A stretch of DNA of 64,000 bases from a phage. Under the pieces are notes generated by a model. That model had not been told where the DNA came from, made no database searches, and was given only the letters and a program-made list of their open reading frames with translations. This document shows, one piece after another, positions 2,488-56,213 of the stretch. A program made the translations under genes and the position numbers. How positions within the stretch are numbered: position 1 is the first letter of the stretch; each line of letters opens with the position of its first letter. The DNA lies in the sequence record PZ386963.1, one strand, 5' to 3'.

Positions 2488-2847
2488 TTATGGGAACAGA
2501 CACTTGATGTCATCGTTTTTAAAAACAAAACTTGTGTAGTTGTGACCATCAACATCCAGCCAAACAGCCTGAACATCTACACCATCAAGATTGTGGTAAA
2601 GCTCTTTGATGAAGTGGTCTTTCACAATCTGACTACTAGTTGTTTCCAACTTAATGTTCGAGATTGCTGAACCTACAGCCATATAACCCATGACACGTTT
2701 CTTCTCAGTATGCTTAATTTTACCATCTTTGTAAGCCATAATGAGATTGGAAAGAATCTTCACACCATAATACTTCTCAAGGTGAGTAGGTACGCCATAA
2801 AAACCTAATGCGAAGTTTTCAAAGTGGATAATGTTTTCACGTTTCAT
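2488..2847 (-). CDS. Hypothetical protein
   Basis: 119-aa ORF. Confidence 0.4.
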   Translation of the reverse strand: MKRENIIHFENFALGFYGVPTHLEKYYGVKILSNLIMAYKDGKIKHTEKKRVMGYMAVGSAISNIKLETTSSQIVKDHFIKELYHNLDGVDVQAVWLDVDGHNYTSFVFKNDDIKCLFP

Positions 2848-2848
2848 A

Positions 2849-3178
2849 TTAATCTGCCAACCTTAAATTGAGATTAACACCAAATTTTTCACACACTCCC
2901 AACATATACTCAAGGGAAACATTCCCAGTGAGGTGGATTATGTTGGATACACGAGCCTGAGAGATACCACAAATTTTAGCAACTTGTTCTTGAGAAAGAC
3001 CTCTGGATTTAATCTCTCTCTTAAAACGATGTGCAACGAAGTCCCTCATTTCGTCTACATCCATTGGACAAATATAACTCTCCATTTCAGCCTCTCTATC
3101 AGCCTCCCAATCATCTTGTGGAGCATAAGGGTCAAAAGCTTCATTCATCTTTCTTCTTCCGTTTGCGTGAAGTGTCAA
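2849..3178 (-). CDS. Helix-turn-helix DNA-binding protein
   Basis: LSQEQVAKICGISQARVSNIIH resembles XRE-type HTH. Confidence 0.45.
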   Translation of the reverse strand: MTLHANGRRKMNEAFDPYAPQDDWEADREAEMESYICPMDVDEMRDFVAHRFKREIKSRGLSQEQVAKICGISQARVSNIIHLTGNVSLEYMLGVCEKFGVNLNLRLAD

Positions 3179-3353
3179 TCAATGAATCTATGTTTGTAGC
3201 CCTAACCTTTTCACGTTCATCGTTAAGATAATCATCAAGAGCCTTTTCAATCTGTGAATCATCTTGACAGATAACTGTAAAGACTGTAAAGCCGTCTGTA
3301 TCGTCAATTATCTTACCATAACCGCTTCTGGGATGTAACTTTTTAAGAGCCAT
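3141..3353 (-). CDS. Hypothetical protein
   Basis: 70-aa ORF overlapping neighbour. Confidence 0.3.
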   Translation of the reverse strand: MALKKLHPRSGYGKIIDDTDGFTVFTVICQDDSQIEKALDDYLNDEREKVRATNIDSLIDTSRKRKKKDE

Positions 3354-3354
3354 A

Positions 3355-3738
3355 TCAAATACCTGTGCAGCTTCTGTTTTCTAAGAAATACTCAACACCA
3401 TACATAGCTTTTTGCATCAAATCTTCTTTAAACTGGATACGATGGTTGAGCATAGCCTGCACATCAATATCATCATGGTGCTTCTCTTTAATATTTGCAG
3501 ATTGCAGGAAATACTCTGCAAGAACACGATACTGGTAGTCAGTCACCTTATCGGTCATCTCTGTCAAAGACTCTTCAGAGATGGGTTTAAGTAACTCACC
3601 ATTAGCTAGAGCAACACCTTTTACAATCTGGCAAGTGTCTTCTGGAACACCTGATAAGTCCACATTTGGAAGTTCTGTTGCATTGACTGGTAAGTTCATT
3701 GCCATAACCATTGCAGCAGCTAATAAAATCTTTTTCAT
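3355..3738 (-). CDS. Secreted/periplasmic protein (signal peptide)
   Basis: N-terminus MKKILLAAAMVMAMNLPVNA looks like Sec signal peptide. Confidence 0.45.
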   Translation of the reverse strand: MKKILLAAAMVMAMNLPVNATELPNVDLSGVPEDTCQIVKGVALANGELLKPISEESLTEMTDKVTDYQYRVLAEYFLQSANIKEKHHDDIDVQAMLNHRIQFKEDLMQKAMYGVEYFLENRSCTGI

Positions 3739-3839
3739 AATGACCTCAAAGTTATATTAAATTTTGTATTACATTGAGTATAAAAATAAGCTATAACACC
3801 TGACTTGTCAACAGATTTTATAGCTTATTTGGCAGATTT

Positions 3840-4090
3840 TTTATAAGGCTACTGCCATCCTTCCATACCTTACCTTACCACACCTAACCATACCTAACCA
3901 AACTACACCATACAATACCTTGTTAAAAGACCCTCTTTAAAGACCTTTTAAAAAGGTGAGTCTCATTTTAATGTAGCTGAGACTAACTACCCTCACCAAA
4001 CCAGACCCAACCCAGCCCAGCCATACCAGACCATACCAAACCCAACCGAACCGAACCCTACCGAACATCACTTAAAAACCCTCTTAGAAG
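3840..4090. repeat. Strand-biased C/A-rich low-complexity repeat region (G/T-rich on the transcribed minus strand)
   Basis: Repeated CCTAACC, CCATACC, CCAGCCC, CCGAACC units; no ORF. Confidence 0.6.
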
Positions 4091-22748: not shown

Positions 22749-24893
22749 ATGAACAAAGTACAGATTATTAAAAAGAATGGCTCACTCGAAGAACCTGATA
22801 TCAAAAAAGTTTTAGCAGCAGTCACAAAGTCAGCTAATAGGGTTGGGTATAAAGAACTTCCACCAGATGTTACCCAAGCTCTTGAGTCAGCATTTATGAG
22901 GATTCTGGTAAAATCCACTAAGCAGAATAATTTACTCATTTCAGTAAATGATATTCACAGTATTGTTGAGGGTGCTTTGGCAGAAGTCAATCACGAGATT
23001 TATGAGTCTTACTCAACATATAGAAATTACCGTAAAGAAGTTGCTCAAAATTGGGATGAACTCTACCAGAAGACCAAAGATACACTCTTCTTAGGTGACA
23101 GAGAGAATGCTAACTTTGACAGCAGTTTAATTTCTACAAAAGGCTCAATTATTCGTGGTTACCTGACTAAAGAAATCTTTAAGCAGTACCATTTAACACC
23201 AGAGGAACTTGAAGCCATTGAAAAAGGGTTTATCTATATCCATGATTTAAGAGACCTGATTTTTGGTGGTATCAACTGTTGCCTGTTTGACATTGGTAAA
23301 GTGCTGAAAGGTGGCTTTGAAATGTCTGGCATTGAATACTGTGAACCAAAGTCTGTACTGTCAGCCTTACAGGTTATTGGTGATGTAGTTCTTTCAGCAA
23401 CTGCACAGCAATTTGGTGGCTTTACTTTAGCAGAGATTGATAAGGTACTTGTACCGTATGCTAAGAAGTCTCTATGTTACCATGCTGAAAAAGCAACAGC
23501 TTATGGTATTCCTAAAGAACATTACCACAACTATGTCATGGAGCAGCTACAGATTGAATTAACTCAAGGTTTTCAGTCTCTTGAAATGAAGCTCAATACT
23601 GTGCCTTGTAGCCGTGGTGATTTTGCATTCACAACTTTGACATTCGGGTTACTTGACTCAGATATGTCTAATGAAGATAACCGACTGCAATACATGATTG
23701 CGAGCACTCTCCTAGATGTTCGTATGAATGGACAAGGTAAGAGTAAGAAGCCTGTTGTATTCCCTAAACTGGTTTATATTTATGACCAGAAGAGACACAA
23801 TGAGAATATCTGTCAAGGCCACCTGTACAGTAAAGCTATTGAGTGTTGCTCTAAAGCTATGTATCCAGATTTCTTAAGTGTATCTGGACATGGTGCTGTA
23901 GCAGAGGCTTTTGAGCGTTCTGGTAAGGTAATTTCACCGATGGGTTGCAGAGCCTTCTTATCTCCATATTTTAACGAGAATGGGGAAGAGTTCTACGTTG
24001 GTCGTGCTAACATTGGTGCTGTATCTTTGAACTTACCAATGATTTACCAGTATTCTAAAGAGAATGGCTTAGATTTCTGGAAAGAGCTTGATAAGTACCT
24101 AGAAATGATTCGCAGCTTCCACAAGAAACGTTACGAAATGATTGCTAATATGCCAGCAAGTTCTAACCCTCTTGCATTCACACAAGGTGGTCTGTACAAA
24201 GGGAATAAGAAACCTACTGACAAGGTTGGCTGGGATATTGTGAAGTCCTTCACAGCTTCTTTTGGGGTTACTGCGCTTGATGAGTTATCTGTTCTTGCTG
24301 AAGGTAAACGACTTCATGAAGTTGGAAGCTGTAGTTTTGCATATGATGTTCTGGAATATATCAACATGAAGACTGAAGAGTTTAAAAATGAAGATGGATT
24401 CTTATATGCAGTCTATGGCACTCCAGCAGAATCACTTTGTGGAACTCAGCTAAAACAGTTCAGAGATATGTTTGGCGTTATCAAAGGCGTTTCTGACAAG
24501 GAATACTTTACAAACAGTTTCCATATGAATGTTGCAGCAGACATTACACCATTTGAGAAGCAGGACTTAGAAGAACCCTTCTTCCATATCTGTAGAGGCG
24601 GCAGAATCCAGTATGTAAGAGTGGCTAATCCAGAAAACTTATCAGCACTTAAGAGTTGTATTACAAGAGGGATGTTGAAAGGTTTCTATCAGGGACTTAA
24701 CTTTGACTTAGCAATCTGTGAACATTGTGGTAACAGACCAAAGGCTGATGTTGAAGAATGTGAGGTTTGCCATTCACATGATATCTCTGTGATTAACAGG
24801 GTATGTGGGTATCTCGGATGGACTAAGATTAAAGGTGAATCCCGAATGAATGATGCAAAAATCGCTGAGATTCGTGACAGGATTTCTATGTAA
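22749..24893 (+). CDS. nrdD: Anaerobic ribonucleotide reductase (class III)
   Basis: 714 aa, C-terminal glycyl-radical motif RVCGYLG, Cys-rich zinc site before it. Confidence 0.9.
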   Translation: MNKVQIIKKNGSLEEPDIKKVLAAVTKSANRVGYKELPPDVTQALESAFMRILVKSTKQNNLLISVNDIHSIVEGALAEVNHEIYESYSTYRNYRKEVAQNWDELYQKTKDTLFLGDRENANFDSSLISTKGSIIRGYLTKEIFKQYHLTPEELEAIEKGFIYIHDLRDLIFGGINCCLFDIGKVLKGGFEMSGIEYCEPKSVLSALQVIGDVVLSATAQQFGGFTLAEIDKVLVPYAKKSLCYHAEKATAYGIPKEHYHNYVMEQLQIELTQGFQSLEMKLNTVPCSRGDFAFTTLTFGLLDSDMSNEDNRLQYMIASTLLDVRMNGQGKSKKPVVFPKLVYIYDQKRHNENICQGHLYSKAIECCSKAMYPDFLSVSGHGAVAEAFERSGKVISPMGCRAFLSPYFNENGEEFYVGRANIGAVSLNLPMIYQYSKENGLDFWKELDKYLEMIRSFHKKRYEMIANMPASSNPLAFTQGGLYKGNKKPTDKVGWDIVKSFTASFGVTALDELSVLAEGKRLHEVGSCSFAYDVLEYINMKTEEFKNEDGFLYAVYGTPAESLCGTQLKQFRDMFGVIKGVSDKEYFTNSFHMNVAADITPFEKQDLEEPFFHICRGGRIQYVRVANPENLSALKSCITRGMLKGFYQGLNFDLAICEHCGNRPKADVEECEVCHSHDISVINRVCGYLGWTKIKGESRMNDAKIAEIRDRISM

Positions 24894-27199: not shown

Positions 27200-27520
27200 A
27201 TGAGCAAAGTTTATAACACTCGCAAATTACAGATTTTCGTACTGTGCCAGTTTATGGCTAAAGAATATAACTTCTACTATTGTGGTACAGGTTTTATCAG
27301 CGATGATGATGGCTCATACCTCCCATTCAAAGAAGCTGTAAAGCTCTTTAATGAAGAGGAAAGCTCTAAGAAAGATATTGAAAAGGTTAAGCTAACCTAC
27401 AGCAAGAAAGATAAGAAGATTATCTGCCTAGATAACTTTGTAAAAGTTACTGGAGAAGCAAAAGAGTTTATGGATGAGAGTGAGATTTCATTCACAAGCA
27501 TCTTGAAAGTAGCTCAGTAA
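27200..27520 (+). CDS. Hypothetical protein
   Basis: 106-aa ORF. Confidence 0.35.
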   Translation: MSKVYNTRKLQIFVLCQFMAKEYNFYYCGTGFISDDDGSYLPFKEAVKLFNEEESSKKDIEKVKLTYSKKDKKIICLDNFVKVTGEAKEFMDESEISFTSILKVAQ

Positions 27521-27526
27521 ACAGAT

Positions 27527-27560
27527 ACTATAAGGGAACTGTAAAGGTTCCCTTTTTTAT
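27527..27560 (+). terminator. Rho-independent terminator
   Basis: GGGAAC...GTTCCC hairpin plus TTTTTT. Confidence 0.6.
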
Positions 27561-27572
27561 TTTGGAGATAAA

Positions 27573-28088
27573 ATGTATCTGTCAAACCTGAAACGTTCGG
27601 CTGCAATGTCAGTTCTAAGACTCAGCTTTGAGGAACGTCAAGAGTTCATTGACTCCCACCAATACGACCCTTCTAACTCGAATCACATGGTTCTTTGGAA
27701 TCGTGATAACTTCCGTGAAAGAGCACTTGTCCGTTATTACCCACACTACACAATAGATAACCTGTATGAATGGTGCGTTGTGAAGAACACTATTGCAACA
27801 CTGAACAATCTTTGCAGGTATACAGGTAAGCAAGCATTTACATTAGGCCACCACAAACCTGTTACAAAGGGTGGTGAGCATCACTGCGCAAACTGGTTTA
27901 TCCAGACTAAACTTGATAACCAGAAGCAAGGGGATAATCTTCTAAGCACACCTAAGATGACCTATGAAGAGCAAGAGAAATATATCAAAAATAATATGCC
28001 AGATGTGCTTGACAACAACTATACAGATTTGGCAATATCTCTCCTGTTGAAGTTCGAGACAGTTTATAGGGCAACTTACAATGGCTAA
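27573..28088 (+). CDS. Hypothetical protein with HNH-like His/Cys motif
   Basis: CRYTG...GHHKPVTKGGEHHCANW resembles HNH core (weak). Confidence 0.3.
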   Translation: MYLSNLKRSAAMSVLRLSFEERQEFIDSHQYDPSNSNHMVLWNRDNFRERALVRYYPHYTIDNLYEWCVVKNTIATLNNLCRYTGKQAFTLGHHKPVTKGGEHHCANWFIQTKLDNQKQGDNLLSTPKMTYEEQEKYIKNNMPDVLDNNYTDLAISLLLKFETVYRATYNG

Positions 28089-28359
28089 AGAGAAGTGGGA
28101 GATTTTACCATTAGTCAGTGAAGGTGGTAATGGTTGTGAAATGTACATGATACGTGGTCATGTTCCAGAACCAATTGCACTTGAGATGGTAAACAACTTT
28201 ACAGATGGTTCTTACAAAGACTTAGGAGAGCCAACTATAAAGCAGCAATGGGTAAAGCCTGTACCAGACAGCACAGGTAACTGTAGTGTACTTTATCACG
28301 TTGTAGACCCTGCAAAATGCAAATCTGCAATGGCAGTAACAAACGTAACTTTTGATTGA
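28081..28359 (+). CDS. Hypothetical protein
   Basis: 92-aa ORF. Confidence 0.35.
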   Translation: MAKEKWEILPLVSEGGNGCEMYMIRGHVPEPIALEMVNNFTDGSYKDLGEPTIKQQWVKPVPDSTGNCSVLYHVVDPAKCKSAMAVTNVTFD

Positions 28360-28370
28360 GAGAGAAAACT

Positions 28371-29252
28371 ATGAAAACTGTTATTGAAGCCGTCGTCACC
28401 GCACAAGAGAAATTCTTCCACACAGAAAAATTTAATATCATTCAATTCCCATCTGGAGAAATTGGTGGAAACTTCTCTGAAGATTTTGTTAAGTTTACTG
28501 AGCGTAATGCTGGTAAGATTGACAATGTTATACTTACTGTACAGGGATATGACAAAGATACACTGTTTGCATTAGCTTTGGCTAAGGATGCCGTTGACAG
28601 TCTTGTTCCCCAGAAATCAGCGATGAAAACCGTTGTTTTCGGGTTCTTACCAAATGCTCGATATGACCGCCACATGTTCAAAGGTGATGCAGCAGCACTG
28701 AAAGTCTTTGCCAACCTAGTTAATGCAATGGGCTTTGATGCAGTATGTGCTCTTGACCCTCACAGCAATGTTGCAGAAAACTTATTTAAGTGCTTTCAGA
28801 GCATGAAGCAAAAAGATGTGGCAGTACACTTTGCAAGTGACCCACGCATTGATTTCTTGGTAGCCCCAGATGCAGGTGCAGCTAAGAAGACTGAAGATGC
28901 CGCTAAAGAGGTGGATAAACCATATATCACAATGGCTAAGGTGCGAAACCTTAAGACTGGAGAAATCACTGGTATGCGAATCCTTGACGATGTTGATTTG
29001 ACCGATAAAACTGTCATGATTCTTGATGATATCTGTGATGGTGGTCGAACATTCGTAGAGGCAGCTAAACACCTACGTGAAGCAGGTGCAAAACGTGTGG
29101 AACTCTATGTAACTCATGGTATTTTCTCTAAAGGTGTTGAAAACTTACTTGACAATGGTATTGACCATATCTACACTACAAACACTTTAGGTGAAGCTAA
29201 AGACCGTGGCTTAACACATTACGGCCAAGTTACTGTAGCAACCATTGATTGA
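28371..29252 (+). CDS. Ribose-phosphate pyrophosphokinase (Prs)-like protein; candidate ADP-ribose pyrophosphate synthetase (Adps)
   Basis: PRPP-synthetase-type phosphoribosyl-binding loop VMILDDICDGGRTFVEAA; 293 aa. Confidence 0.7.
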   Translation: MKTVIEAVVTAQEKFFHTEKFNIIQFPSGEIGGNFSEDFVKFTERNAGKIDNVILTVQGYDKDTLFALALAKDAVDSLVPQKSAMKTVVFGFLPNARYDRHMFKGDAAALKVFANLVNAMGFDAVCALDPHSNVAENLFKCFQSMKQKDVAVHFASDPRIDFLVAPDAGAAKKTEDAAKEVDKPYITMAKVRNLKTGEITGMRILDDVDLTDKTVMILDDICDGGRTFVEAAKHLREAGAKRVELYVTHGIFSKGVENLLDNGIDHIYTTNTLGEAKDRGLTHYGQVTVATID

Positions 29253-29297
29253 AACTTTATAGGGGCTTGAAAGCCCCATTTTGAGAGAGATTAAAAG

Positions 29298-31079
29298 ATG
29301 ACTAAATCACTTTATGCAGTACCAGCAGGTTTAAACGCAGATGCTTACAAATCTGGTCATGTTTACCAGTATCCTAGTGCAACAGAGTACTTGATGTTCA
29401 ACCTGACACCACGTAGCGACAAATGGTTTAACAGCCCTTTAGCAATTGATGGTGTAGTGGCTTTTGGTATTCAACGTTTTGTTAAAGATTACTTGATAGA
29501 CCACTGGAACGCCACTTTCTTTGAACGTGATAAAAAAGAAGCAATTGACGAAATCTTAGAAGTCATGAATGGTGTTCTGGGTAAAGATACTATCGGTCGA
29601 GAGCATTGGGAAGCACTTCACGACTTAGGTTATCTGCCAGTTGAAGTATACGCTGTAGAAGAAGGCACAGTTGTCCCGATGCGTGTCCCAATGATTGTCT
29701 TCCAGAACACTGTTTCAGGTTTCCATTGGGTAGCAGGTTATCTGGAAGATGCTTTCTCTGCTGAGATTTGGAAGGCTTGCACCATTGCAACTATCGCATT
29801 GCACTACAAACGTATCTGTAAGAAGTGGGCTGACCTTACTTGCGACAACGACTTACATTTACCTTATCAGTGCCATGACTTTGCTATGCGTGGTATGTCC
29901 GGCTTTACTGATGACGCATTTAACGCTGTAGGCCACTTAACCAGCTTTAAAGGAACTGATAGCTTCCCTGCTGTATACACGGCTAAACGCATCTATGGAC
30001 AGTCTTACCCAATCTGTGATATTGGTAGCTCTGTACCAGCCACTGAACACTCTGTAATGTGTGCAAACATTGCTTGGGGAGGTGGTAATGAACTGATTGA
30101 AGAAGAAAGACGCTTTAAAGGTGAGTTACAAACCTTCCGTCGTTTCTTAACAGAAACTTACCCAACTGGTATTGCAAGTATTGTTTCAGATACTTATAAC
30201 TTCTGGAGAACTGTGTCAGAAATCTTACCAGCACTCCGTAAAGAAATTATGGAACGTGATGGCAAACTGGTAATTCGTCCTGACTCTGGAGACCCTGTAC
30301 ATATTGTCACAGGTTATAAAGCAATCCACTTAGAGTGTGCTAAGAAGGCTTATTATGAGCACCTAAGCAAGCTGGAAGCCAGTGACACAATGTTGAATGC
30401 TGTTCTGAACATGAAGCTTGAAAACATCAGCTATGGTATTGCTGGATGGCTACTGTCAGAAGGCTACGAAATGGTTGTTGACAGAGAAGACTTTGAAGCT
30501 GCTGATACAGTGATGTTGAAAAATGCTTATATGGTTGGTTCTGCAAACGTTGTAACACGCCCTGTAGCTGAGATTGATGGAGCTATTAAGACACTGTACA
30601 ACATCTTTGGGGGAACTATTAACTCTAAAGGGTTTAAGGTACTGGATGAGCACATCGGCCTTATCTATGGTGACTCTATCACGCTGGAACGTGCAAACGA
30701 AATCCTGAAGCGTCTGTATGAAATGGGTTTTGCAAGCTCTAACGTAGTGTTTGGTGTAGGTTCTTACACTTACCAGTACATGACTCGTGACACCTTTGCA
30801 TTTGCTGTCAAAGCAACTCTTGCAAGCATTGGTGGTAAAGAGATTATGCTTGCAAAAGACCCTAAAACAGATAGTGGTGTTAAGAAATCTGCCTTTGGTG
30901 GTGTAGCACCTATGTGGGATGGGGATAAGCTGAAAGCTGTAGATGGCTATGGATTCCAGAGTTTTGCAGATGCACTTGACCACCCAGCTTGTGCTTTACG
31001 TTTAGTCTTTAGCGACTCTGAGCAGTTCGGTTACACAACTCTTGGTGATATTCGAAATAATATTGACAAGCAGCTTTAA
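29298..31079 (+). CDS. Nicotinamide phosphoribosyltransferase (Nampt/NadV)-like protein; candidate Namat
   Basis: 593 aa; family assignment from overall Nampt-like sequence character, no single diagnostic motif picked out; immediately downstream of Prs-like gene. Confidence 0.65.
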   Translation: MTKSLYAVPAGLNADAYKSGHVYQYPSATEYLMFNLTPRSDKWFNSPLAIDGVVAFGIQRFVKDYLIDHWNATFFERDKKEAIDEILEVMNGVLGKDTIGREHWEALHDLGYLPVEVYAVEEGTVVPMRVPMIVFQNTVSGFHWVAGYLEDAFSAEIWKACTIATIALHYKRICKKWADLTCDNDLHLPYQCHDFAMRGMSGFTDDAFNAVGHLTSFKGTDSFPAVYTAKRIYGQSYPICDIGSSVPATEHSVMCANIAWGGGNELIEEERRFKGELQTFRRFLTETYPTGIASIVSDTYNFWRTVSEILPALRKEIMERDGKLVIRPDSGDPVHIVTGYKAIHLECAKKAYYEHLSKLEASDTMLNAVLNMKLENISYGIAGWLLSEGYEMVVDREDFEAADTVMLKNAYMVGSANVVTRPVAEIDGAIKTLYNIFGGTINSKGFKVLDEHIGLIYGDSITLERANEILKRLYEMGFASSNVVFGVGSYTYQYMTRDTFAFAVKATLASIGGKEIMLAKDPKTDSGVKKSAFGGVAPMWDGDKLKAVDGYGFQSFADALDHPACALRLVFSDSEQFGYTTLGDIRNNIDKQL

Positions 31080-31089
31080 AAGTATATGA

Positions 31090-31118
31090 TAAGAGGCTCC
31101 TACGGGAGCCTTTTTAAT
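31090..31118 (+). terminator. Rho-independent terminator
   Basis: GGCTCC-TACG-GGAGCC hairpin plus T-run. Confidence 0.6.
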
Positions 31119-31132
31119 TTCTGGAGAAAGAT

Positions 31133-31468
31133 ATGAAAATCAAAGAGATGAACATTAACGTTGTCCTAGAAGAACGTTGGGAAAACATTAAGAAACCTGA
31201 AGATGGTAAAAAGTTCCTTAACAAAATTTTAGTAGCAGCTAAAGAAGAACTGACTGGCAAGATTGCAGCAGCAATCACAATAAAAGTCTGTGTAAAAGGT
31301 CTTCCACAACATCACCAATTTGCACTTGACGAGTTTAAAGAAAGCTTCTACAATCCAAACAAACAGATACTTGAAAGTAACTTTGCAGTGTCTACAAGTA
31401 TCGTCCATGACAGAAGCTTTATCCTTTACAAAAACATGAGAGGTGAGTCATGCAAGCATATTGGATAG
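31133..31468 (+). CDS. Hypothetical protein
   Basis: 111-aa ORF. Confidence 0.35.
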   Translation: MKIKEMNINVVLEERWENIKKPEDGKKFLNKILVAAKEELTGKIAAAITIKVCVKGLPQHHQFALDEFKESFYNPNKQILESNFAVSTSIVHDRSFILYKNMRGESCKHIG

Positions 31469-40465: not shown

Positions 40466-40846
40466 ATGGCATATCGCGCACCTAAATTCATCAACAAAGA
40501 CAACTTTCGCAACGCACTGGAGAAGTCACTTGATGAGGATTTTAAAGGCAATGTTATTGTTGTCCACGCATTCAATTTTAAGTATGATATTAACGGGAAC
40601 AGAATCAACCATTACACGGCAACAATGTTAGATGGCACACTTTCAAGTGAAAAAGCCATTATCAATGCACTTGCAGGACGTGGGAAAAACCTGATAAGAT
40701 GCGATAAGAGACGTTATCAAGGTGGCGCATATGGTTACGATGATGCTATCTATCATCTTGAGAATATGGGCTATCTAGTAGAAAAAGCGGGAGCGCCCCA
40801 AATTATTGGTAGTGATGGCTATGTAACAATTTTCAAAATTAACTAA
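40466..40846 (+). CDS. Cassette gene 2, hypothetical
   Basis: 126 aa. Confidence 0.45.
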   Translation: MAYRAPKFINKDNFRNALEKSLDEDFKGNVIVVHAFNFKYDINGNRINHYTATMLDGTLSSEKAIINALAGRGKNLIRCDKRRYQGGAYGYDDAIYHLENMGYLVEKAGAPQIIGSDGYVTIFKIN

Positions 40847-40850
40847 TAAA

Positions 40851-40934
40851 GTACTTTACAAGGGGCTTAGTAGTTGATACCTTAAGCCCCAGATAAAGAG
40901 CTTTACCACTAAATCCTAAATTGGAGATTCTAAA
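40851..40934 (+). promoter_or_regulatory. Cassette head type A
   Basis: Same stem-loop/leader as 40381. Confidence 0.55.
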
Positions 40935-41225
40935 ATGGCTATTATCAAAAACGTTGTAATTACTGCAAAAACTCGCGATGACGCTCGTGTTATGGCTAAA
41001 AAGTTATGCGGAAAAGTAGTTGACAACGGAAAACAATCTGCTGTAAGATGGGGCGTAAAGGTTGATAAACATTTAACCTTGAAACGCAGTTCAAATAACC
41101 TTTTTAAAGGTGTGGAAACACTCGGTAAAACAAACGTATACACTAAAAAATCATATATCAAACGCGTAGCCTTAACCTCCCCCATTCGAACAATCAGAGG
41201 CTATGCAAAACTGAAAATTAACTGA
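40935..41225 (+). CDS. Cassette gene 3, hypothetical basic protein
   Basis: 96 aa. Confidence 0.45.
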   Translation: MAIIKNVVITAKTRDDARVMAKKLCGKVVDNGKQSAVRWGVKVDKHLTLKRSSNNLFKGVETLGKTNVYTKKSYIKRVALTSPIRTIRGYAKLKIN

Positions 41226-41229
41226 TAAA

Positions 41230-41314
41230 GTACTTTACAGGGGGCTTAAAAGTTGATATCTTAAGCCCCAGATAAAGAGCTTTACCACTAAATCCTTAAA
41301 CTAGGAGATTCAAA
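41230..41314 (+). promoter_or_regulatory. Cassette head type A
   Basis: Same stem-loop/leader. Confidence 0.55.
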
Positions 41315-41827
41315 ATGAAAACTGTAGACGCTACTTTTGAAGTTGTAAAAGAAAAATTCACTATTATTTATGAAGCGGTAAATTGCTACGAAGCAAGCCA
41401 TAATCTTGATAATTGGAAGTTTACAGATGACCATCAAGGCGGCGTGACTGTTAAAAACCCTAACTGTCAGCGTAACGATTTTAAATATGCAATCCCTTTA
41501 AATTATAGCCTTAAACAGCTTTCTAGTGACTATGCAAAACAAGGCCGGGAAAATCCATCAAAAGAGGCTTACATCAGCTTACAGGAAGAACTAGAAAGAG
41601 ATTTAGAGGCTTCAGAATACAACCTTGCCGCGAAAGTTGTCGATGCAAATGGTCAAACAATTTTAGACAGTTTTTATATTGGTTACGCTTTCGATTGGTG
41701 CTATAGTGACGGTGATGATTTAGAGGATAGACTAAAAGAAGAGGTGAGCAATTCAGACGCAGAGACTGAAGTATTAGAACGTTTGGAATCATTAAAAGAT
41801 GCAGTGATGAATATCTTTAAAAACTAA
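41315..41827 (+). CDS. Cassette gene 4, hypothetical acidic protein
   Basis: 170 aa. Confidence 0.45.
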   Translation: MKTVDATFEVVKEKFTIIYEAVNCYEASHNLDNWKFTDDHQGGVTVKNPNCQRNDFKYAIPLNYSLKQLSSDYAKQGRENPSKEAYISLQEELERDLEASEYNLAAKVVDANGQTILDSFYIGYAFDWCYSDGDDLEDRLKEEVSNSDAETEVLERLESLKDAVMNIFKN

Positions 41828-41834
41828 ATAGATT

Positions 41835-41916
41835 TCTTTACACGGGGTTATCAAGCTGATAAGATAGCCCCAGATAAAGAGATTTACCACTAAATCCTTA
41901 AACTAGGAGATTCAAA
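41835..41916 (+). promoter_or_regulatory. Cassette head type A (variant stem)
   Basis: GGGGTTATC...GATAGCCCC stem-loop plus conserved leader. Confidence 0.5.
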
Positions 41917-42213
41917 ATGAAATTATCAAATAAAGTTAGGGAAAACCTTAGCAAATTACTCAATAAAATTGATTTTATCGAGACATCAAGAAATAGTCAT
42001 GATGTTATGGAATGGTTACACGGCAAAATAAAAGGCCGTCGTGTGGTGATTTGCTTATGGAATAGTTGCAGGGAGTATAAAAAACCTGTATTACAAGTTA
42101 ATATATACGATAATACTTTTAAAAGCCCTGTAAAGTCTAAAAGCGATTTATTAGAAGCCTATGAGATAACTGTAAGTGGCAAAGTATCACGTAAAGAGGA
42201 ATCACCATGCTAA
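41917..42213 (+). CDS. Cassette gene 5, hypothetical
   Basis: 98 aa. Confidence 0.45.
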   Translation: MKLSNKVRENLSKLLNKIDFIETSRNSHDVMEWLHGKIKGRRVVICLWNSCREYKKPVLQVNIYDNTFKSPVKSKSDLLEAYEITVSGKVSRKEESPC

Positions 42214-42539
42214 TGACTGGCATCACTGCAATTATAGCCATTTTCGCGCTCTATAAGGCATATAAAGCCTATAATTTAGCAGATAAGGCAATCACACAGC
42301 AGGTTAGCAATAACCTCGTAATGAGCTTTCTAGAGCGTTTAAGTGATGAGCAAATAAAGCGGCTAGAGATGAGCTTCAGATATAAAGCGAAAACCTATCA
42401 GATAAGTGACATCTTCAAAGATGATTTTCAGTTAGTTGATGATTATAATTCTCTGATAAATGCTTTAAATATCAGTGACTTAAAAGACTACTACGCTGTA
42501 ATTGTTCAAGAATTGAGCAAACGAAAACAAAGTGTTTGA
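42207..42539 (+). CDS. Cassette gene 6, membrane-anchored hypothetical (no own cassette head; overlaps gene 5)
   Basis: 110 aa, hydrophobic N-terminus. Confidence 0.4.
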   Translation: MLMTGITAIIAIFALYKAYKAYNLADKAITQQVSNNLVMSFLERLSDEQIKRLEMSFRYKAKTYQISDIFKDDFQLVDDYNSLINALNISDLKDYYAVIVQELSKRKQSV

Positions 42540-42629
42540 CACTGATTTTTAGATAGATTAAATTACACATCAACGGGGAGGGAATGACCTTCCCCACTAA
42601 ATAAAGTCCTTAAACTAGGAGATTCTAAA
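42536..42629 (+). promoter_or_regulatory. Cassette head type B: TTGACA-17-TAAATT promoter + GGGGAGGGAATGACCTTCCCC stem-loop + conserved leader
   Basis: Canonical -35/-10 spacing; stem-loop at transcript 5' end. Confidence 0.6.
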
Positions 42630-42902
42630 ATGTATACTACTAACAACGGTCGTACTTTAAATGTCACTCTACGTCACTATGTAGATGGTGTAATGTGCTT
42701 TGAGGATTTACGGGCTGAACAACACATCTTAGATTGGCAAGTAGCAGGACTCCAAAAAACTGCTACCGGATACGGTAAAAAGATTCCAACCAGTTGGAAA
42801 GTACACTACGAAGGGCGTTTGCGTAGAATTTATCAAGATGTTTGTAGCAATAGCGCATCGAGTTACATCATGGTAAAAGGTAAAAAGCTGCATTTAGTGT
42901 AA
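42630..42902 (+). CDS. Cassette gene 7, hypothetical
   Basis: 90 aa. Confidence 0.45.
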   Translation: MYTTNNGRTLNVTLRHYVDGVMCFEDLRAEQHILDWQVAGLQKTATGYGKKIPTSWKVHYEGRLRRIYQDVCSNSASSYIMVKGKKLHLV

Positions 42903-42988
42903 AGTACTTTACAAGGGGCTTATAGTTCGATAAAGTAAGCCCCAGATAAAGAGCTTTACCCCTAAATCCTAAATTGGAGAACTTAAAA
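42903..42988 (+). promoter_or_regulatory. Cassette head type A
   Basis: Same stem-loop/leader. Confidence 0.55.
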
Positions 42989-43393
42989 ATGGCTATTAAT
43001 AACCGTGAGTTATCAATCTTAAAAGCACGTTTGACCGTTAACCGGATTAATGTTATCACGTCATCAGCGCCTGATGAGACATTGCACAACATTATCGGGA
43101 AGATTCAAAGCGTTATCTTAGACGTTGAAAACGTAAAAAAATCATTGGCTGACGTTGCAGCAGGTATCACGCTAGACGGCGCACAATATGAAATGTCCGA
43201 CATGTTAGGCAAATCAAAGGTAATGAATAAAGAATTAGACTTGAAAATGTTTCGATTTGCTGTCAAAGTGTGGCTATCTGTCGAGTATGACGCTAATTTT
43301 GCAATCGCTGATTTCTTTGCCACTTGGTTACAACGTAATTTGACAAATCACGATTTTCGTGATGTCTGTGATGCAATTTATGCAGAACTCTAA
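42989..43393 (+). CDS. Cassette gene 8, hypothetical
   Basis: Start at MAINN behind GGAGA RBS. Confidence 0.45.
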   Translation: MAINNRELSILKARLTVNRINVITSSAPDETLHNIIGKIQSVILDVENVKKSLADVAAGITLDGAQYEMSDMLGKSKVMNKELDLKMFRFAVKVWLSVEYDANFAIADFFATWLQRNLTNHDFRDVCDAIYAEL

Positions 43394-43402
43394 AAAATTT
43401 TG

Positions 43403-43497
43403 TTGACACTGGTTTTTAGATAGATTAAATTACACATCAACGGGGAGGGAATGACCTTCCCCACTAAATAAAGTCCTTAAACTAGGAGATTCTAAAA
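43403..43497 (+). promoter_or_regulatory. Cassette head type B
   Basis: Near-identical to 42536-42629. Confidence 0.6.
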
Positions 43498-43701
43498 ATG
43501 GCTATTATCAACGGCTTACACATTGAAACAACTCACATCAAAGATATTAAAGTTGGTGATGTAGTCCTTTCCCACGGCGTAGAGAAAACTGTCACTGCAA
43601 AGGATATCAAAGAGGATTCTTTCATGGGTAGGACTCTCTTCGGTGATTCTTATTGCTTAGGGTATCTTGCAGTTTTAAAAGTTGTCAAAAATAACAAATA
43701 A
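43498..43701 (+). CDS. Cassette gene 9, hypothetical
   Basis: 67 aa. Confidence 0.4.
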   Translation: MAIINGLHIETTHIKDIKVGDVVLSHGVEKTVTAKDIKEDSFMGRTLFGDSYCLGYLAVLKVVKNNK

Positions 43702-43787
43702 AGTACTTTACAAGGGGCTTAAAAGTTGTTACCTTAAGCCCCAGATAAAGAGCTTTACCACTAAATCCTAAACTGGAGATTCAAAAA
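43702..43787 (+). promoter_or_regulatory. Cassette head type A
   Basis: Same stem-loop/leader. Confidence 0.55.
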
Positions 43788-44333
43788 ATGAAATGCTTTC
43801 ACGGTACTACTCAAGAAAACTTTATCAACCTGATTAATAATGGTGATAAGCCATCAGGTGCATGGAATTGTTCGGATATGGATGGCAATTTTTACGTATA
43901 CCCAGAAAATAAAATCTATGGTGACGATGAGGAAGAGATAGTATCCGAAGGTATTCAACAGGCGTTAGGAAATGCCACTATCACGGCAGCTTTCCAGATG
44001 AAAACCCAAAACATTGTTATCTTGGAACTTGATATTCCAGAGGATGAATTAAATGATGATTATTCTTGTGATAATATGTCTGGCGTAGCAAGTTTTACAG
44101 AATACTTCGATTTAAATTGGATTAAAAAGGTTTACGTAACCGAGTTTAATGCGATGTTTTCGCCTTTTTGTCTTCCTTCATTGGATAACCCAAATTTAAA
44201 CTATCTTGATGAGTCTCTGGAGCTTCTTGCTAAAAGCGTTCAACAGTCGGACAGTATTCAGGTTTTTTGTGACATCATGGATACACTGGCAGGAAACATC
44301 GCAGAAGAGGATTTAAAGAGCTTTTTTTTTTAA
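43788..44333 (+). CDS. Cassette gene 10, hypothetical acidic protein
   Basis: 181 aa. Confidence 0.45.
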   Translation: MKCFHGTTQENFINLINNGDKPSGAWNCSDMDGNFYVYPENKIYGDDEEEIVSEGIQQALGNATITAAFQMKTQNIVILELDIPEDELNDDYSCDNMSGVASFTEYFDLNWIKKVYVTEFNAMFSPFCLPSLDNPNLNYLDESLELLAKSVQQSDSIQVFCDIMDTLAGNIAEEDLKSFFF

Positions 44334-47821: not shown

Positions 47822-48427
47822 TTAAATCAGATTTTCTAAAACTGCTTTTAGTGATGACTTAGTTGTCTGATAAAAATGAGTGAATCCATTGTTGTTATCA
47901 AATATCTGCATCATGATATCATCTCCCTTGATTGGATACACTCGGATATCATAGTGAAACCCATTAAAGACAGCAGAACCATTACAGAATACACTAAAAT
48001 CACTTGCTGAGATATACTCTTCATGACCTGTGATTTTTATACAGACACCTTTACTCGGTCTCTTAGGGTTGATATCTTCCATCACAGACATACTCTGCCC
48101 ACCAAGAGATACCATCGTGACCACTTTACGGTTCTTCTGTTTAAAGTACATTTTAACTTTCTGTAAAGTGTCTTCATAGAACGGATAAGACTTCTCTACA
48201 AAGATTCCTTCCAATGGCTCTTTACCATTTTCAACTTCTCTGTTATGCCGTACTGCAAAGATAATTTGTTCGAACCAGTCAAGATTTTCTTCGGAGAGTG
48301 CTTCTCGAATATCACTCCAGTCAAGGACTAGGTAGTTACCTTCAACTTCTTTTAAGTTATCTTTTTCCATAGCTATCACACCATTATCGTAAGACTTGGT
48401 AATCTGGTACTGCAAACTTGTTGTCAT
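47822..48427 (-). CDS. Hypothetical protein
   Basis: 201-aa ORF (start may be internal Met). Confidence 0.4.
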   Translation of the reverse strand: MTTSLQYQITKSYDNGVIAMEKDNLKEVEGNYLVLDWSDIREALSEENLDWFEQIIFAVRHNREVENGKEPLEGIFVEKSYPFYEDTLQKVKMYFKQKNRKVVTMVSLGGQSMSVMEDINPKRPSKGVCIKITGHEEYISASDFSVFCNGSAVFNGFHYDIRVYPIKGDDIMMQIFDNNNGFTHFYQTTKSSLKAVLENLI

Positions 48428-48848
48428 TGTTTTTAATGAGGTCTTCTTCTGTCACTAAGAATGTAAGACCACACAAGTGCGTATAGCAGCTATCATACTC
48501 AAATATTTTAAGTAAGTATTTACCATCATGATAGACAGACTCTACTACACCTTTTGCAACAATCTTTCCAGTCTTGAAGTCTTTAAGACGGTATACATTA
48601 CCAACTTTAGGGACTGTTTTCACTTCAGGCTCTTTTAGTTTCTCACCAGCTTCTACATCACCTAGCAAGTTAGAACTTTCAAACGCTACATATTGCATAT
48701 AAGCTTCTGAGCATTCCCAGATAAAACAGTGTACAAGAACCTTAGCAGCATGTCTTGAGCAATTCAGCTTATCACAAATCTCTTTGTACATGTCATCTTT
48801 AGTTGAGTTGTCAAGCATTGCTTTTTGAACGACTTCTTTAATTTTCAT
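48384..48848 (-). CDS. Hypothetical protein
   Basis: 154-aa ORF. Confidence 0.4.
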   Translation of the reverse strand: MKIKEVVQKAMLDNSTKDDMYKEICDKLNCSRHAAKVLVHCFIWECSEAYMQYVAFESSNLLGDVEAGEKLKEPEVKTVPKVGNVYRLKDFKTGKIVAKGVVESVYHDGKYLLKIFEYDSCYTHLCGLTFLVTEEDLIKNNDNKFAVPDYQVLR

Positions 48849-55003: not shown

Positions 55004-55594
55004 TTAAGCTTTGGTCTTAAGTAGGTTCTTAAGTTTTTTAAGATTCATACTCTCATCAAACTTAAAACCAAATCCATTGACATAATCAATGAACTCGGAT
55101 TTCTTACTAAGTGACAATGCGTAACTCATATCAAAGTTCTTACTTGTTTCTGCGTCTGGACTAGAGTTCACATCAAATGAAATTTCTGTAGGCTCTTGCT
55201 TACTTTTTCTCATATTATCAACCAACAAACATGTATAGTTTGCTGGATAGAAGTTTACACTACCATCAACGTAGCTGTACTTATTATTATGGATAAGGTT
55301 GGAAAATACCTTAAGAAATGTTTCTGAGTCGTGGCAAACAAGTTTGAATTGGCTGCTCTCTCCAAGCGCAACTAATGAGTACGGACTTTCACTATCAAAG
55401 TCATAATTTGGATTCGATGCCGTCACTGTTACACGCATCAAGTTATTAGCAATAGTCTTCTGTTTAAAAGAATTTTGAACATAGTGAAGACCTCTATCAC
55501 ACTGATTGACTAGCTCTTTAAGTAGGTCATTTGCATATGGTGAATTAATTGATACAGAGCCATCACTATTGTAATTAAAACTTACTGTTAACAT
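55004..55594 (-). CDS. Hypothetical protein
   Basis: 196 aa. Confidence 0.4.
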   Translation of the reverse strand: MLTVSFNYNSDGSVSINSPYANDLLKELVNQCDRGLHYVQNSFKQKTIANNLMRVTVTASNPNYDFDSESPYSLVALGESSQFKLVCHDSETFLKVFSNLIHNNKYSYVDGSVNFYPANYTCLLVDNMRKSKQEPTEISFDVNSSPDAETSKNFDMSYALSLSKKSEFIDYVNGFGFKFDESMNLKKLKNLLKTKA

Positions 55595-55821
55595 TTTTCA
55601 GTTCTCCTGCGATTTATAATTTTGCTGCAATAGAGAAACGAAGTAAACTCACTGGAAGAAACCATTAAGTGTTGTTCACTAGATTGAGCCATTGCCCTGA
55701 AATACATTCCAGTCAAAGCATCATAGTGACTATTCTTTCCAATTGAGGTTATATAGCCATGACTCTTTGCAGTTTGATATAAATCTATAATATCTGCGAT
55801 TTCTAATTGGGAACTACACAT
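55588..55821 (-). CDS. Hypothetical protein
   Basis: 77 aa. Confidence 0.3.
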   Translation of the reverse strand: MCSSQLEIADIIDLYQTAKSHGYITSIGKNSHYDALTGMYFRAMAQSSEQHLMVSSSEFTSFLYCSKIINRRRTEKC

Positions 55822-56213
55822 AGATAATCCTCTTGTCTTCTGTAATTTTGAAAGAACAGGTACAGACCAATTTCAGAGGATGAATAGTAGAGTAACTCTA
55901 CCCTTTTTGATTCCTTACAGTGATTGGTATTTTTACCTTTCTTCGGGTTGTTTGATTTTCTCATTAAGTCTCCTTTGTAGAACAAGGCAGACCTACAGCT
56001 TTAAGTAAGATGGTACAGTAATCCATACAACAAGTCAAGAACTATTGCAAGTTAAAAAAGTTGTTGACAAAGTACTTGACAAGGTGTAGGCTTATAAATA
56101 CTTAGAAGATAACTTAAAAGGTTCCTCTAAAAAGGCTATTTAAACAGATATCTTTCTGGATATCTATCTTTTATCTTAAAAGCCTTTTAAGAGGTCTTAT
56201 AAGAGGCATACCA

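Follow-up and report, generated by a model that had tools for sequence, protein, structure and literature searches.

A Felixounavirus adps–namat locus matching the NARP1 counter-defence operon of phage Bas63

The NARP1 system (Adps plus Namat) was discovered in the gp79/gp80 operon of Escherichia phage JohannRWettstein (Bas63) (Osterman et al., bioRxiv 10.1101/2024.02.11.579819). In that study, loss of the operon made the phage more sensitive to SIR2-HerA, with plating around 20-fold worse, and NAD+ depletion was milder when the operon was present. The effect against SIR2-HerA was still seen in a host lacking both pncC and nadR, and ADP-ribose pyrophosphate (ADPR-PP, m/z 720.010) was seen in infected cells only with wild-type Bas63 together with the defence system. 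Bas63 Adps itself purified poorly, so the in vitro activities come from homologues (32–33% identical for Adps and about 38% for Namat).

Conversion of ADP-ribose and ATP to ADPR-PP, and then with nicotinamide to NAD+, has been obtained in vitro for homologues from SPbetaL1, ICP1, DyoEdafos and Paenibacillus foliorum. The SPbetaL1 system has been biochemically reconstituted (PMC12774641). In the canonical Prs assay (ribose-5-phosphate plus ATP, Fig. [quoted passage not shown] Adps of Vibrio phage ICP1 has been resolved in apo, substrate-bound and product-bound structures (PMC13586617), and mutation of a lysine on a β-hairpin (K162 in SPbetaL1, K185 in ICP1) abolishes Adps activity. In the proposed mechanism, NADase defences of the host (SIR2-HerA/Nezha, DSR1, DSR2, type I Thoeris, SEFIR, Kongming and similar systems) split NAD+ into ADP-ribose and nicotinamide, and Adps would move the β,γ-pyrophosphate of ATP to the distal ribose of ADP-ribose. 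Namat would then exchange the pyrophosphate of ADPR-PP for nicotinamide to give NAD+ directly, so that neither an NMN intermediate nor an adenylyltransferase would be needed.

Here we describe a two-gene locus in a 64,000-nucleotide stretch of phage DNA (the window) that belongs to a Felixounavirus genome and whose 64 kb align collinearly with Bas63. The locus is almost certainly the NARP1 counter-defence operon of a Felixounavirus (Table 1), an assignment that draws on direct observations: identity to a characterised operon, diagnostic residues, operon architecture and the lack of alternative-pathway genes. The initial annotation had described a PRPP-synthetase-family gene followed by a 593-residue Nampt-family gene and a terminator, and open reading frames, profile matches and hairpin energy place all three where it had put them. 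Its NARP1 reading is right because both genes are nearly identical to those of the discovery operon, with 289 of 293 residues (98.6%) shared between Adps and Bas63 gp79 (bas63_0079, adps) and 585 of 593 (98.6%) between Namat and gp80 (bas63_0080, namat). With this 99% identity and the adenine clamp of Namat, the locus is a copy of the already characterised founding example of NARP1 and no longer a candidate. Strong purifying selection acts on both genes in the comparison with Bas63, with dN/dS of about 0.04 (0.037 for adps and 0.041 for namat), and the exact Namat sequence has no identical entry in the public protein collection.

Table 1. Features of the adps–namat locus and its flanks, in window coordinates
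Feature	Position	Strand	Description
Upstream terminator-like hairpin	27532-27554	+	9-bp stem followed by a T-run
171-aa ORF	27573-28088	+	HNH-like motif, phrog_3500; inside the terminator-bounded adps–namat unit
92-aa ORF	28081-28359	+	phrog_4726; overlaps the end of the 171-aa ORF, directly upstream of adps
adps	28371-29252	+	293-aa PRPP-synthetase-family (PRPS-like) ORF; ADP-ribose pyrophosphate synthetase
Adps catalytic Lys190	28938-28940	+	Aligns with SPbetaL1 K162 and ICP1 K185; invariant column in Adps alignments
Adps distal-ribose Asp pair and PP loop	29025-29054	+	DDICDGGRTF; DDICDG start of the PP loop conserved
Intercistronic stem-loop	29262-29277	+	GGGGCU-UGAA-AGCCCC then AUUUUG, between adps and namat
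namat	29298-31079	+	593-aa Nampt-family ORF; nicotinamide ADP-ribose transferase
Namat SCL loop	29412-29441	+	RSDKWFNSPL; K42-W43
Namat catalytic His251	30048-30050	+	
Namat second insertion	30069-30113	+	15 aa
Namat R327	30276-30278	+	
Namat insertion subdomain	30327-30578	+	84 aa (residues 344–427); absent from the crystallised SPbetaL1 enzyme
Namat SCH motif	30759-30791	+	GSYTYQYMTRD, residues 488–498; selectivity clamp
Intrinsic terminator	31091-31114	+	10-bp GC-rich stem then T-run; closes the adps–namat unit

Adps matches PF00156/PF14572 and phrog_619 (E = 6e-99). The only ribose-phosphate pyrophosphokinase model whose cutoff it passes is the broad subfamily model TIGR01251 ribP_PPkin (137 bits, cutoff 113). 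Against the Prs equivalog models it scores 48–113 bits where the cutoffs are 296–536 (113 against 296, for example), a profile comparison of the kind the initial annotation had proposed. The protein is also only 27–28% identical to host (E. coli) Prs and shorter at the C terminus, and by sequence it belongs to the phage Adps clade, not with cellular Prs. In an alignment with ICP1 Adps at about 32% identity, mapped on isolate VMJ710 (isolate 2019_Mat_E has a truncated adps ORF), 12 of 20 contact residues are identical and 8 differ from this crystallised homologue. Residues kept in the same alignment are F16, R97, H131, D167, K190, I199, D219, D220, I221, C222, D223, G224 and F228; PP-loop positions 225–227 and the lid residue F223 of ICP1 differ, and the differing PP-loop contacts are made in ICP1 Adps through backbone amides.

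Namat matches PF04095, PF18127 and phrog_448 (E = 2e-201). Its AF2 model has a pLDDT of 93.4, and its best sequence and fold matches in the PDB are the SPbetaL1 Namat structures 9W5W and 9W5X (431 bits; TM 0.95 on target length), above every Nampt. The catalytic core, which comprises a nicotinamide-stacking Phe/Tyr, an Asp, the catalytic His and a ribose-binding Arg, is kept (D15, Y17, F195, R198, D221, A248, H251, R327 and D329), and 16 of the 20 NAD-contact residues of the SPbetaL1 crystal structure are identical, including F195, D221, H251 and R327, leaving 4 that differ. Two elements define the adenine clamp. The SCH signature reads GSX-φ-X-φ-X-φ-TRD, in which positions 3 and 7 are aromatic, and the Namat motif fits it, aromatics included; in the SCL loop, the adenine-stacking residue is either Arg at position 3 or a Lys/Tyr followed by the stacking residue, and the K-W arrangement found here is the one published for Bas63 Namat. 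The SCH motif is absent from two true-Nampt controls, the Xanthomonas (Xcc) enzyme 7yqo (GGALLQKVDRD) and Haemophilus ducreyi NadV (HdNadV) 9ke8 (GAQTYQRNTRD).

The two genes lie on the same strand, separated by a 45-nt spacer, with one terminator downstream of the pair; in a published analysis, a Namat gene adjoins 97% of the genes of the Adps clade. The ATG of adps is preceded by GAGAGA, and a longer reading frame with a TTG start opens at 28356. The downstream terminator (ΔG −16.6 kcal/mol, z −3.2; 0 of 200 shuffles equally stable) has the same sequence in Bas63. It is abutted by a σ70-like promoter match (11/12, 31063–31090) that probably serves the genes downstream. The spacer stem-loop is similarly distinct from its shuffles (ΔG −12.6 for the 51-nt spacer stretch, z −3.5; 0 of 200 equally stable), and its sequence is the same in Bas63 despite differing flanking bases; its possible roles are partial attenuation, or the processing or stability of the transcript. 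The upstream hairpin is the probable 5′ limit of the transcription unit, and its ΔG of −12.4 and z of −1.8 make it less well supported than the downstream terminator. Citrobacter phage Mijalis has a terminator annotated at the equivalent position, and a weak σ70-like site (9/12) lies just before the hairpin, at 27503–27531.

Two small ORFs upstream of adps were considered as NARP1 accessories and rejected. The distant Erwinia phage Coenus has a counterpart of the 171-aa ORF in the equivalent place, with 52% identity. The homologue in Phapecoctavirus nieznany and phi92, however, neighbours a UvrD helicase and Nrd genes and is not close to any adps–namat pair, and the Bas63 deletion that abolished counter-defence left the homologue intact. 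The position of the 171-aa ORF thus reflects inherited synteny, and the ORF has no part in the NARP1 mechanism. The 92-aa ORF is not conserved by sequence: an ORF of equal size in Coenus shows no detectable similarity to it.

The initial annotation had seen no NMN adenylyltransferase gene in the window, and this stands. Probes with E. coli NadD and NadR (tblastn and phmmer, all 349 segments between stop codons that reach 50 aa or more) reached a best E of 0.34, a signature-motif scan of the window returned 0 matches, and the annotation of the collinear Bas63 genome lists no such enzyme. Nor did a Pfam scan (E up to 1) find a Macro or RyR (PF02026) domain in the 8 flanking ORFs, and no other ADPR-handling domain was seen in them; about 23 kb of the genome lies outside the window, and the Bas63 annotation contains no Macro, RyR or NMNAT domain protein. 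These searches bear on whether the locus might instead be NARP2, NARP3 or an extended NARP1, all of which are phage NAD+-restoring systems, some sharing Nampt- or Prs-family components. NARP2 pairs Nampt with an NMN adenylyltransferase in one phage, and the window has no such enzyme; NARP3 consists of a PnuC-like transporter and a bifunctional NadR-like enzyme (PMC13464706), and the NadR probe of the window was negative. The extended forms add a Macro-domain ADPR-1″-phosphate phosphatase, Adpp (NARP1-AP), or a RyR-domain glycosidase (RyDEP), and the 8 flanking ORFs encode neither, while the 45-nt spacer is too short for a third gene between adps and namat. Because no NMNAT, NadR-like, Macro or RyR-domain gene was found, the locus is read as plain two-gene NARP1, and a different or extended NARP system is the least probable of the alternatives, with next to no weight. 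No Nmnat was found within 6–7 kb of the Nampt loci of Aeromonas phage CC2 and Citrobacter phage Miller.

Two further alternatives retain the same two genes and change what they would do. Classical salvage, which the initial annotation had kept beside NARP1, would have a true PRPP synthetase and a true Nampt produce NMN, which host NadR or PncC/NadD would turn into NAD+. It agrees with the labels in all database records, with the matches above cutoff to TIGR01251 (137 against 113) and to the NCBIfam model NF006629 ‘nicotinate phosphoribosyltransferase’ (468 bits against 405), and with the in vitro formation of NMN from PRPP by Namat homologues if no ADPR-PP is supplied. That pathway is ruled out because the Bas63 operon sensitises the phage on deletion, yields ADPR-PP and works without host PncC and NadR, which refutes it for the orthologue and leaves it extremely unlikely for the phage here. 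The inactivity of SPbetaL1 Adps in the Prs assay, the exclusive formation of NAD+ when both donors are supplied and the low similarity of Adps to Prs argue in the same direction; the window holds neither an equivalog-level Prs nor a clamp-less Nampt.

A mixed role fares slightly better and is still very unlikely: NARP1 would be the main function and, in hosts without an NADase, Namat would draw on host PRPP to supply more NMN and NAD+ for phage metabolism. Because Namat homologues keep PRPP-dependent NMN synthesis in vitro, as measured for SPbetaL1, a minor contribution to salvage is conceivable, and the operon does lie in a nucleotide-metabolism block, directly downstream of NrdA, NrdB, NrdD and NrdG. 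However, the preference for NAD+ formation with both donors present speaks against it, as does the appearance of ADPR-PP only with a defence system. NARP1 is not reported to raise NAD+ in general; by contrast, NARP2 does so regardless of defence.

For the NARP1 operon described here, enzyme activity and phenotype would be expected to follow those of 99%-identical Bas63 in vivo and of the SPbetaL1, ICP1, DyoEdafos and Paenibacillus homologues in vitro. By this analogy, the phage is predicted to resist defences that yield ADP-ribose and nicotinamide (SIR2-HerA, DSR1/2, type I Thoeris, SEFIR and Kongming) and, because it has no Adpp phosphatase, to remain sensitive to aRES-type defence, which yields ADPR-1″-phosphate. 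NARP1 has been described and characterised before, and the locus adds no new biology; its practical value lies in annotation. Homologues still labelled ‘ribose-phosphate pyrophosphokinase’ and ‘nicotinamide/nicotinate phosphoribosyltransferase’ occur in around 260 records of Felixounavirus type and in about 2,000 from phages overall, and the misannotation of Namat is routine because NF006629 passes its cutoff. Such loci can be relabelled as NARP1 quickly and reliably by three marks: the clamp motif in Namat, an Adps next to it and no NMNAT.

Compared with characterised relatives, Namat has the Nampt fold and catalytic core of NARP2 (KVP40 Nampt plus Nmnat) and of classical bacterial and eukaryotic Nampt/NadV enzymes, but it has the clamp that Xcc Nampt and HdNadV lack, and the window has no counterpart of the Nmnat partner of NARP2. 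ICP1 Adps has a PRPS-like fold in common with Adps here: K185 corresponds to K190, and conservation extends to F18, R87, H121, D161, D212, D213 and the PP-loop ICDG. At 32% identity, PP-loop residues 218–220 are AAS in ICP1 and GRT here, the lid residue F223 corresponds to E230, and F92 aligns to M102 with F103 adjacent. SPbetaL1 is alike in its two-gene adps–namat operon, its catalytic Lys and Arg, its SCH motif and the overall Namat fold. Its Adps is only 32–33% identical, with a PP loop of SSFGGT instead of CDGGRT, and its Namat uses R in the SCL instead of K-W and is without the 15-aa and 84-aa insertions. The larger insertion is a confidently folded subdomain in the predicted structure with no recognisable relative, and it is the sole feature of the locus without discussion in the NARP1 literature examined. 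Bas63 is the closest, with the genus, gene order, spacer hairpin and terminator in common; in both phages the operon lies between the NrdG block and rIIA. The two operons are set apart by 4 substitutions in Adps and 8 in Namat, none of the 12 on a known contact residue; Bas63 Adps has Ser where A189 adjoins the catalytic K190 here, and only Bas63 carries an extra 345-bp ORF (bas63_0081) directly after the terminator.

The adps and namat genes lie 45 nt apart on the plus strand, with the positions, the lengths and the PRPP-synthetase and Nampt family assignments that the initial annotation had given them (table below). The adps product matches PF00156 and PF14572 (phosphoribosyltransferase and PRPP-synthetase domains), TIGR01251 (137 bits; cutoff 113) and phrog_619 (E = 6e-99), and the namat product matches PF04095, PF18127, NF006629 (468 bits) and phrog_448 (E = 2e-201). 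A longer adps reading frame, with a TTG start, opens at 28356. The terminator proposed after the second gene is also present; none of 200 shuffles was as stable, and its sequence is the same in Escherichia phage JohannRWettstein (Bas63, MZ501086). This terminator and an upstream terminator-like hairpin bracket four ORFs (171-aa HNH-like, 92-aa, adps and namat), and terminators are annotated with the same bracketing in Citrobacter phage Mijalis. The 45-nt spacer holds a stem-loop (folding z = −3.5) that is unchanged in Bas63 while the spacer bases around it differ, and that could act as an attenuator or stability element. Sigma-70-like promoter matches directly abut both bracketing hairpins (27503-27531, 9/12; 31063-31090, 11/12), an arrangement in which each hairpin would close one transcript and sit at the 5′ end of the next.

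Features of the adps–namat transcription unit, in window coordinates
Feature	Position	Strand	Details
Upstream terminator-like hairpin	27532-27554		
171-aa ORF	27573-28088		HNH-like motif GHHKPVTKGGEHHCANWFIQTKLDNQKQGD; phrog_3500
adps ORF	28371-29252	+	293 aa; ATG start, GAGAGA just 5′
Spacer stem-loop	29262-29277		Between adps and namat; GGGGCU-UGAA-AGCCCC then AUUUUG
namat ORF	29298-31079	+	593 aa
Downstream terminator	31091-31114		10-bp GC-rich hairpin and T-run; dG −16.6 kcal/mol, z −3.2

NARP1, in which Adps makes ADPR-pyrophosphate (ADPR-PP) and Namat joins it to nicotinamide to rebuild NAD+, was discovered as Bas63 genes 79-80 (Osterman et al., bioRxiv 10.1101/2024.02.11.579819). Gapless identity to the Bas63 proteins (289/293 to gp79, 585/593 to gp80), the Namat clamp motif and Adps K190 support the NARP1 interpretation first suggested for the window. 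None of the 12 substitutions falls on a listed contact residue; one, Adps A189 (S in Bas63), adjoins K190. Both genes are under strong purifying selection, with dN/dS of 0.037 for adps (32 differing positions, 28 changed codons synonymous) and 0.041 for namat (58 and 50). Bas63 is collinear with the whole 64-kb window, from its position 23478 past the record end to position 222, and in both phages the pair is flanked by anaerobic ribonucleotide reductase genes on one side and rIIA/rIIB on the other. The region 28000-31500 matches 259 phage records by megablast (best 97.7% identity), nearly all Felixounavirus with Escherichia, Salmonella or Shigella hosts.

Namat enzymes combine a conserved Nampt-like core with an adenine ‘selectivity clamp’, which pairs a variable loop, giving a stacking residue, with the helix motif GSX-phi-X-phi-X-phi-TRD, in which positions 3 and 7 are aromatic (PMC12774641). 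The window motif is GSYTYQYMTRD (aa 488-498), whereas the negative controls read GGALLQKVDRD (Xanthomonas Nampt, 7yqo) and GAQTYQRNTRD (Haemophilus ducreyi NadV, 9ke8) at this position. A HMMER alignment was used to map the 20 SPbetaL1 Namat residues that contact NAD, and 16 were identical. Of the other four, R40 corresponds to K42, which W43 follows as PMC12774641 gives for Bas63, F392 to Y490, which keeps the aromatic character, S190 to A196 and A362 to S460. The catalytic histidine is H251. Namat structures are the best PDB sequence matches (431 bits, versus 353 for HdNadV, 181 for Xcc Nampt and ~143 for human NAMPT) and the best fold match (TM 0.95 on target length) of an AlphaFold2 model built with 47 homologues (pLDDT 93.4, pTM 0.91). 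Chromosomal homologues of 496 aa in Klebsiella, Cronobacter, Kosakonia, Phytobacter and Erwinia (proteins P0081, P0087, P0097, P0132 and others; 46-48% identical), annotated as nicotinate phosphoribosyltransferase, carry the Namat-type clamp GSFTYQYNTRD or GSYTYQYNTRD, which appears to agree with a published report of bacterial NARP1.

In Adps, K190 aligns with the catalytic lysine (K162 in SPbetaL1, K185 in ICP1-type). The DDICDG segment is conserved, as are the acceptor-site residues F16, R97, H131, D167, D219 and D220; of the 20 positions listed for ICP1 Adps, 12 carry the identical residue by sequence alignment. The PP loop reads CDGGRT, compared with CDGAAS in ICP1, SSFGGT in SPbetaL1 and IDTGGT in E. 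coli Prs. Host Prs is 27-28% identical, and window Adps ends ~20 residues earlier, which fits the reported loss of C-terminal regulatory helices. In ICP1 isolate 2019_Mat_E (L010), the adps frame (1537-2235) ends ahead of the PP loop and namat (2639-3958) is annotated as starting ~60 codons late, unlike the intact pair of ICP1-like VMJ710 (L011); either a natural loss of NARP1 or a frameshift from sequencing could explain this.

The initial annotation had left standing classical salvage, in which PRPP and nicotinamide would yield NMN for a host adenylyltransferase. SPbetaL1 Namat can make NMN from PRPP alone, but makes only NAD+ when both donors are offered. Loss of both pncC and nadR from the host does not stop wild-type Bas63 from overcoming defence, and ADPR-PP and its cyclic-phosphate breakdown product are seen only with both the Bas63 operon and the defence system; classical salvage is thus not how this orthologous operon works. 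The reactions were run in vitro with SPbetaL1 homologues because Bas63 Adps purified poorly: Adps converts ADPR and ATP to ADPR-PP but yields nothing in the canonical Prs assay (ribose-5-phosphate and ATP; Fig. 2D legend), and Namat converts ADPR-PP and nicotinamide to NAD+. K162A in Adps and R306G in Namat each kill the pathway. Subsequent studies bore out these activities with ICP1 Adps and with the DyoEdafos and Paenibacillus pairs. Deletion of the stretch between codon 28 of gene 79 and codon 302 of gene 80 lowered Bas63 plating ~20-fold on SIR2-HerA hosts and made NAD+ loss severer (10.1101/2024.02.11.579819).

Sister pathways need further genes: an NMN adenylyltransferase for NARP2, and a NadR-like enzyme with a PnuC-like transporter for NARP3. 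As initially noted, no NMN adenylyltransferase gene is evident in the window; probing with E. coli NadD and NadR gave no match (best E 0.34; tblastn or phmmer --max, 349 stop-to-stop segments), a signature-motif scan gave 0 matches, and a Prs probe recovered only adps. Extended forms of NARP1 also encode, within or next to the operon, either Adpp, a phosphatase with a Macro domain, or RyDEP, a glycosidase with a RyR domain. Because neither domain was found in the eight flanking ORFs at E up to 1, and the spacer has no room for a third gene, the window system is the plain two-gene form; its phage should stay vulnerable to aRES-type defence, whose product is ADPR-1''-phosphate.

The small upstream ORFs were considered as accessories and rejected. 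The 171-aa ORF, found in 429 phage records and always in nucleotide-metabolism neighbourhoods, lies 5′ of adps in Ounavirinae and beside a UvrD helicase in Phapecoctavirus and phi92, adjoining Nrd genes as well in Phapecoctavirus nieznany and phi92; it is intact in the loss-of-function Bas63 mutant (Osterman et al.). In Erwinia phage Coenus it occupies the same position at 52% identity, above Namat (46%) and Adps (40%), and the 92-aa sequence is not conserved. We conclude that these ORFs reflect inherited synteny, not functional partnership.

Bas63 nrdD is annotated as a two-piece join around a segment (47827-48569) carrying the putative homing endonuclease bas63_0068; window nrdD (~23946) lacks these ~740 bp and appears uninterrupted. 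A 345-bp ORF just 3′ of the Bas63 namat terminator (bas63_0081, 55508-55852) is absent from the window (~31127-31135). In the relatives LinBro, ekra and Mijalis, HNH homing endonuclease genes occur within or next to the operon, and one in Mijalis separates adps from namat. Small mobile insertions appear to be concentrated at this locus. Elsewhere, ~100-bp repeats at 40835-43800, between small early-region ORFs, each match several positions in Bas63 64.7-69.7 kb at 87-95% identity and are probably repeated promoter/terminator cassettes.

The locus is of value for annotation, since these genes continue to be named Prs and Nampt or NAPRTase in public records and NCBIfam. The NARP1 system of the window is already known, and the locus is in effect another isolate of the operon that defined it.
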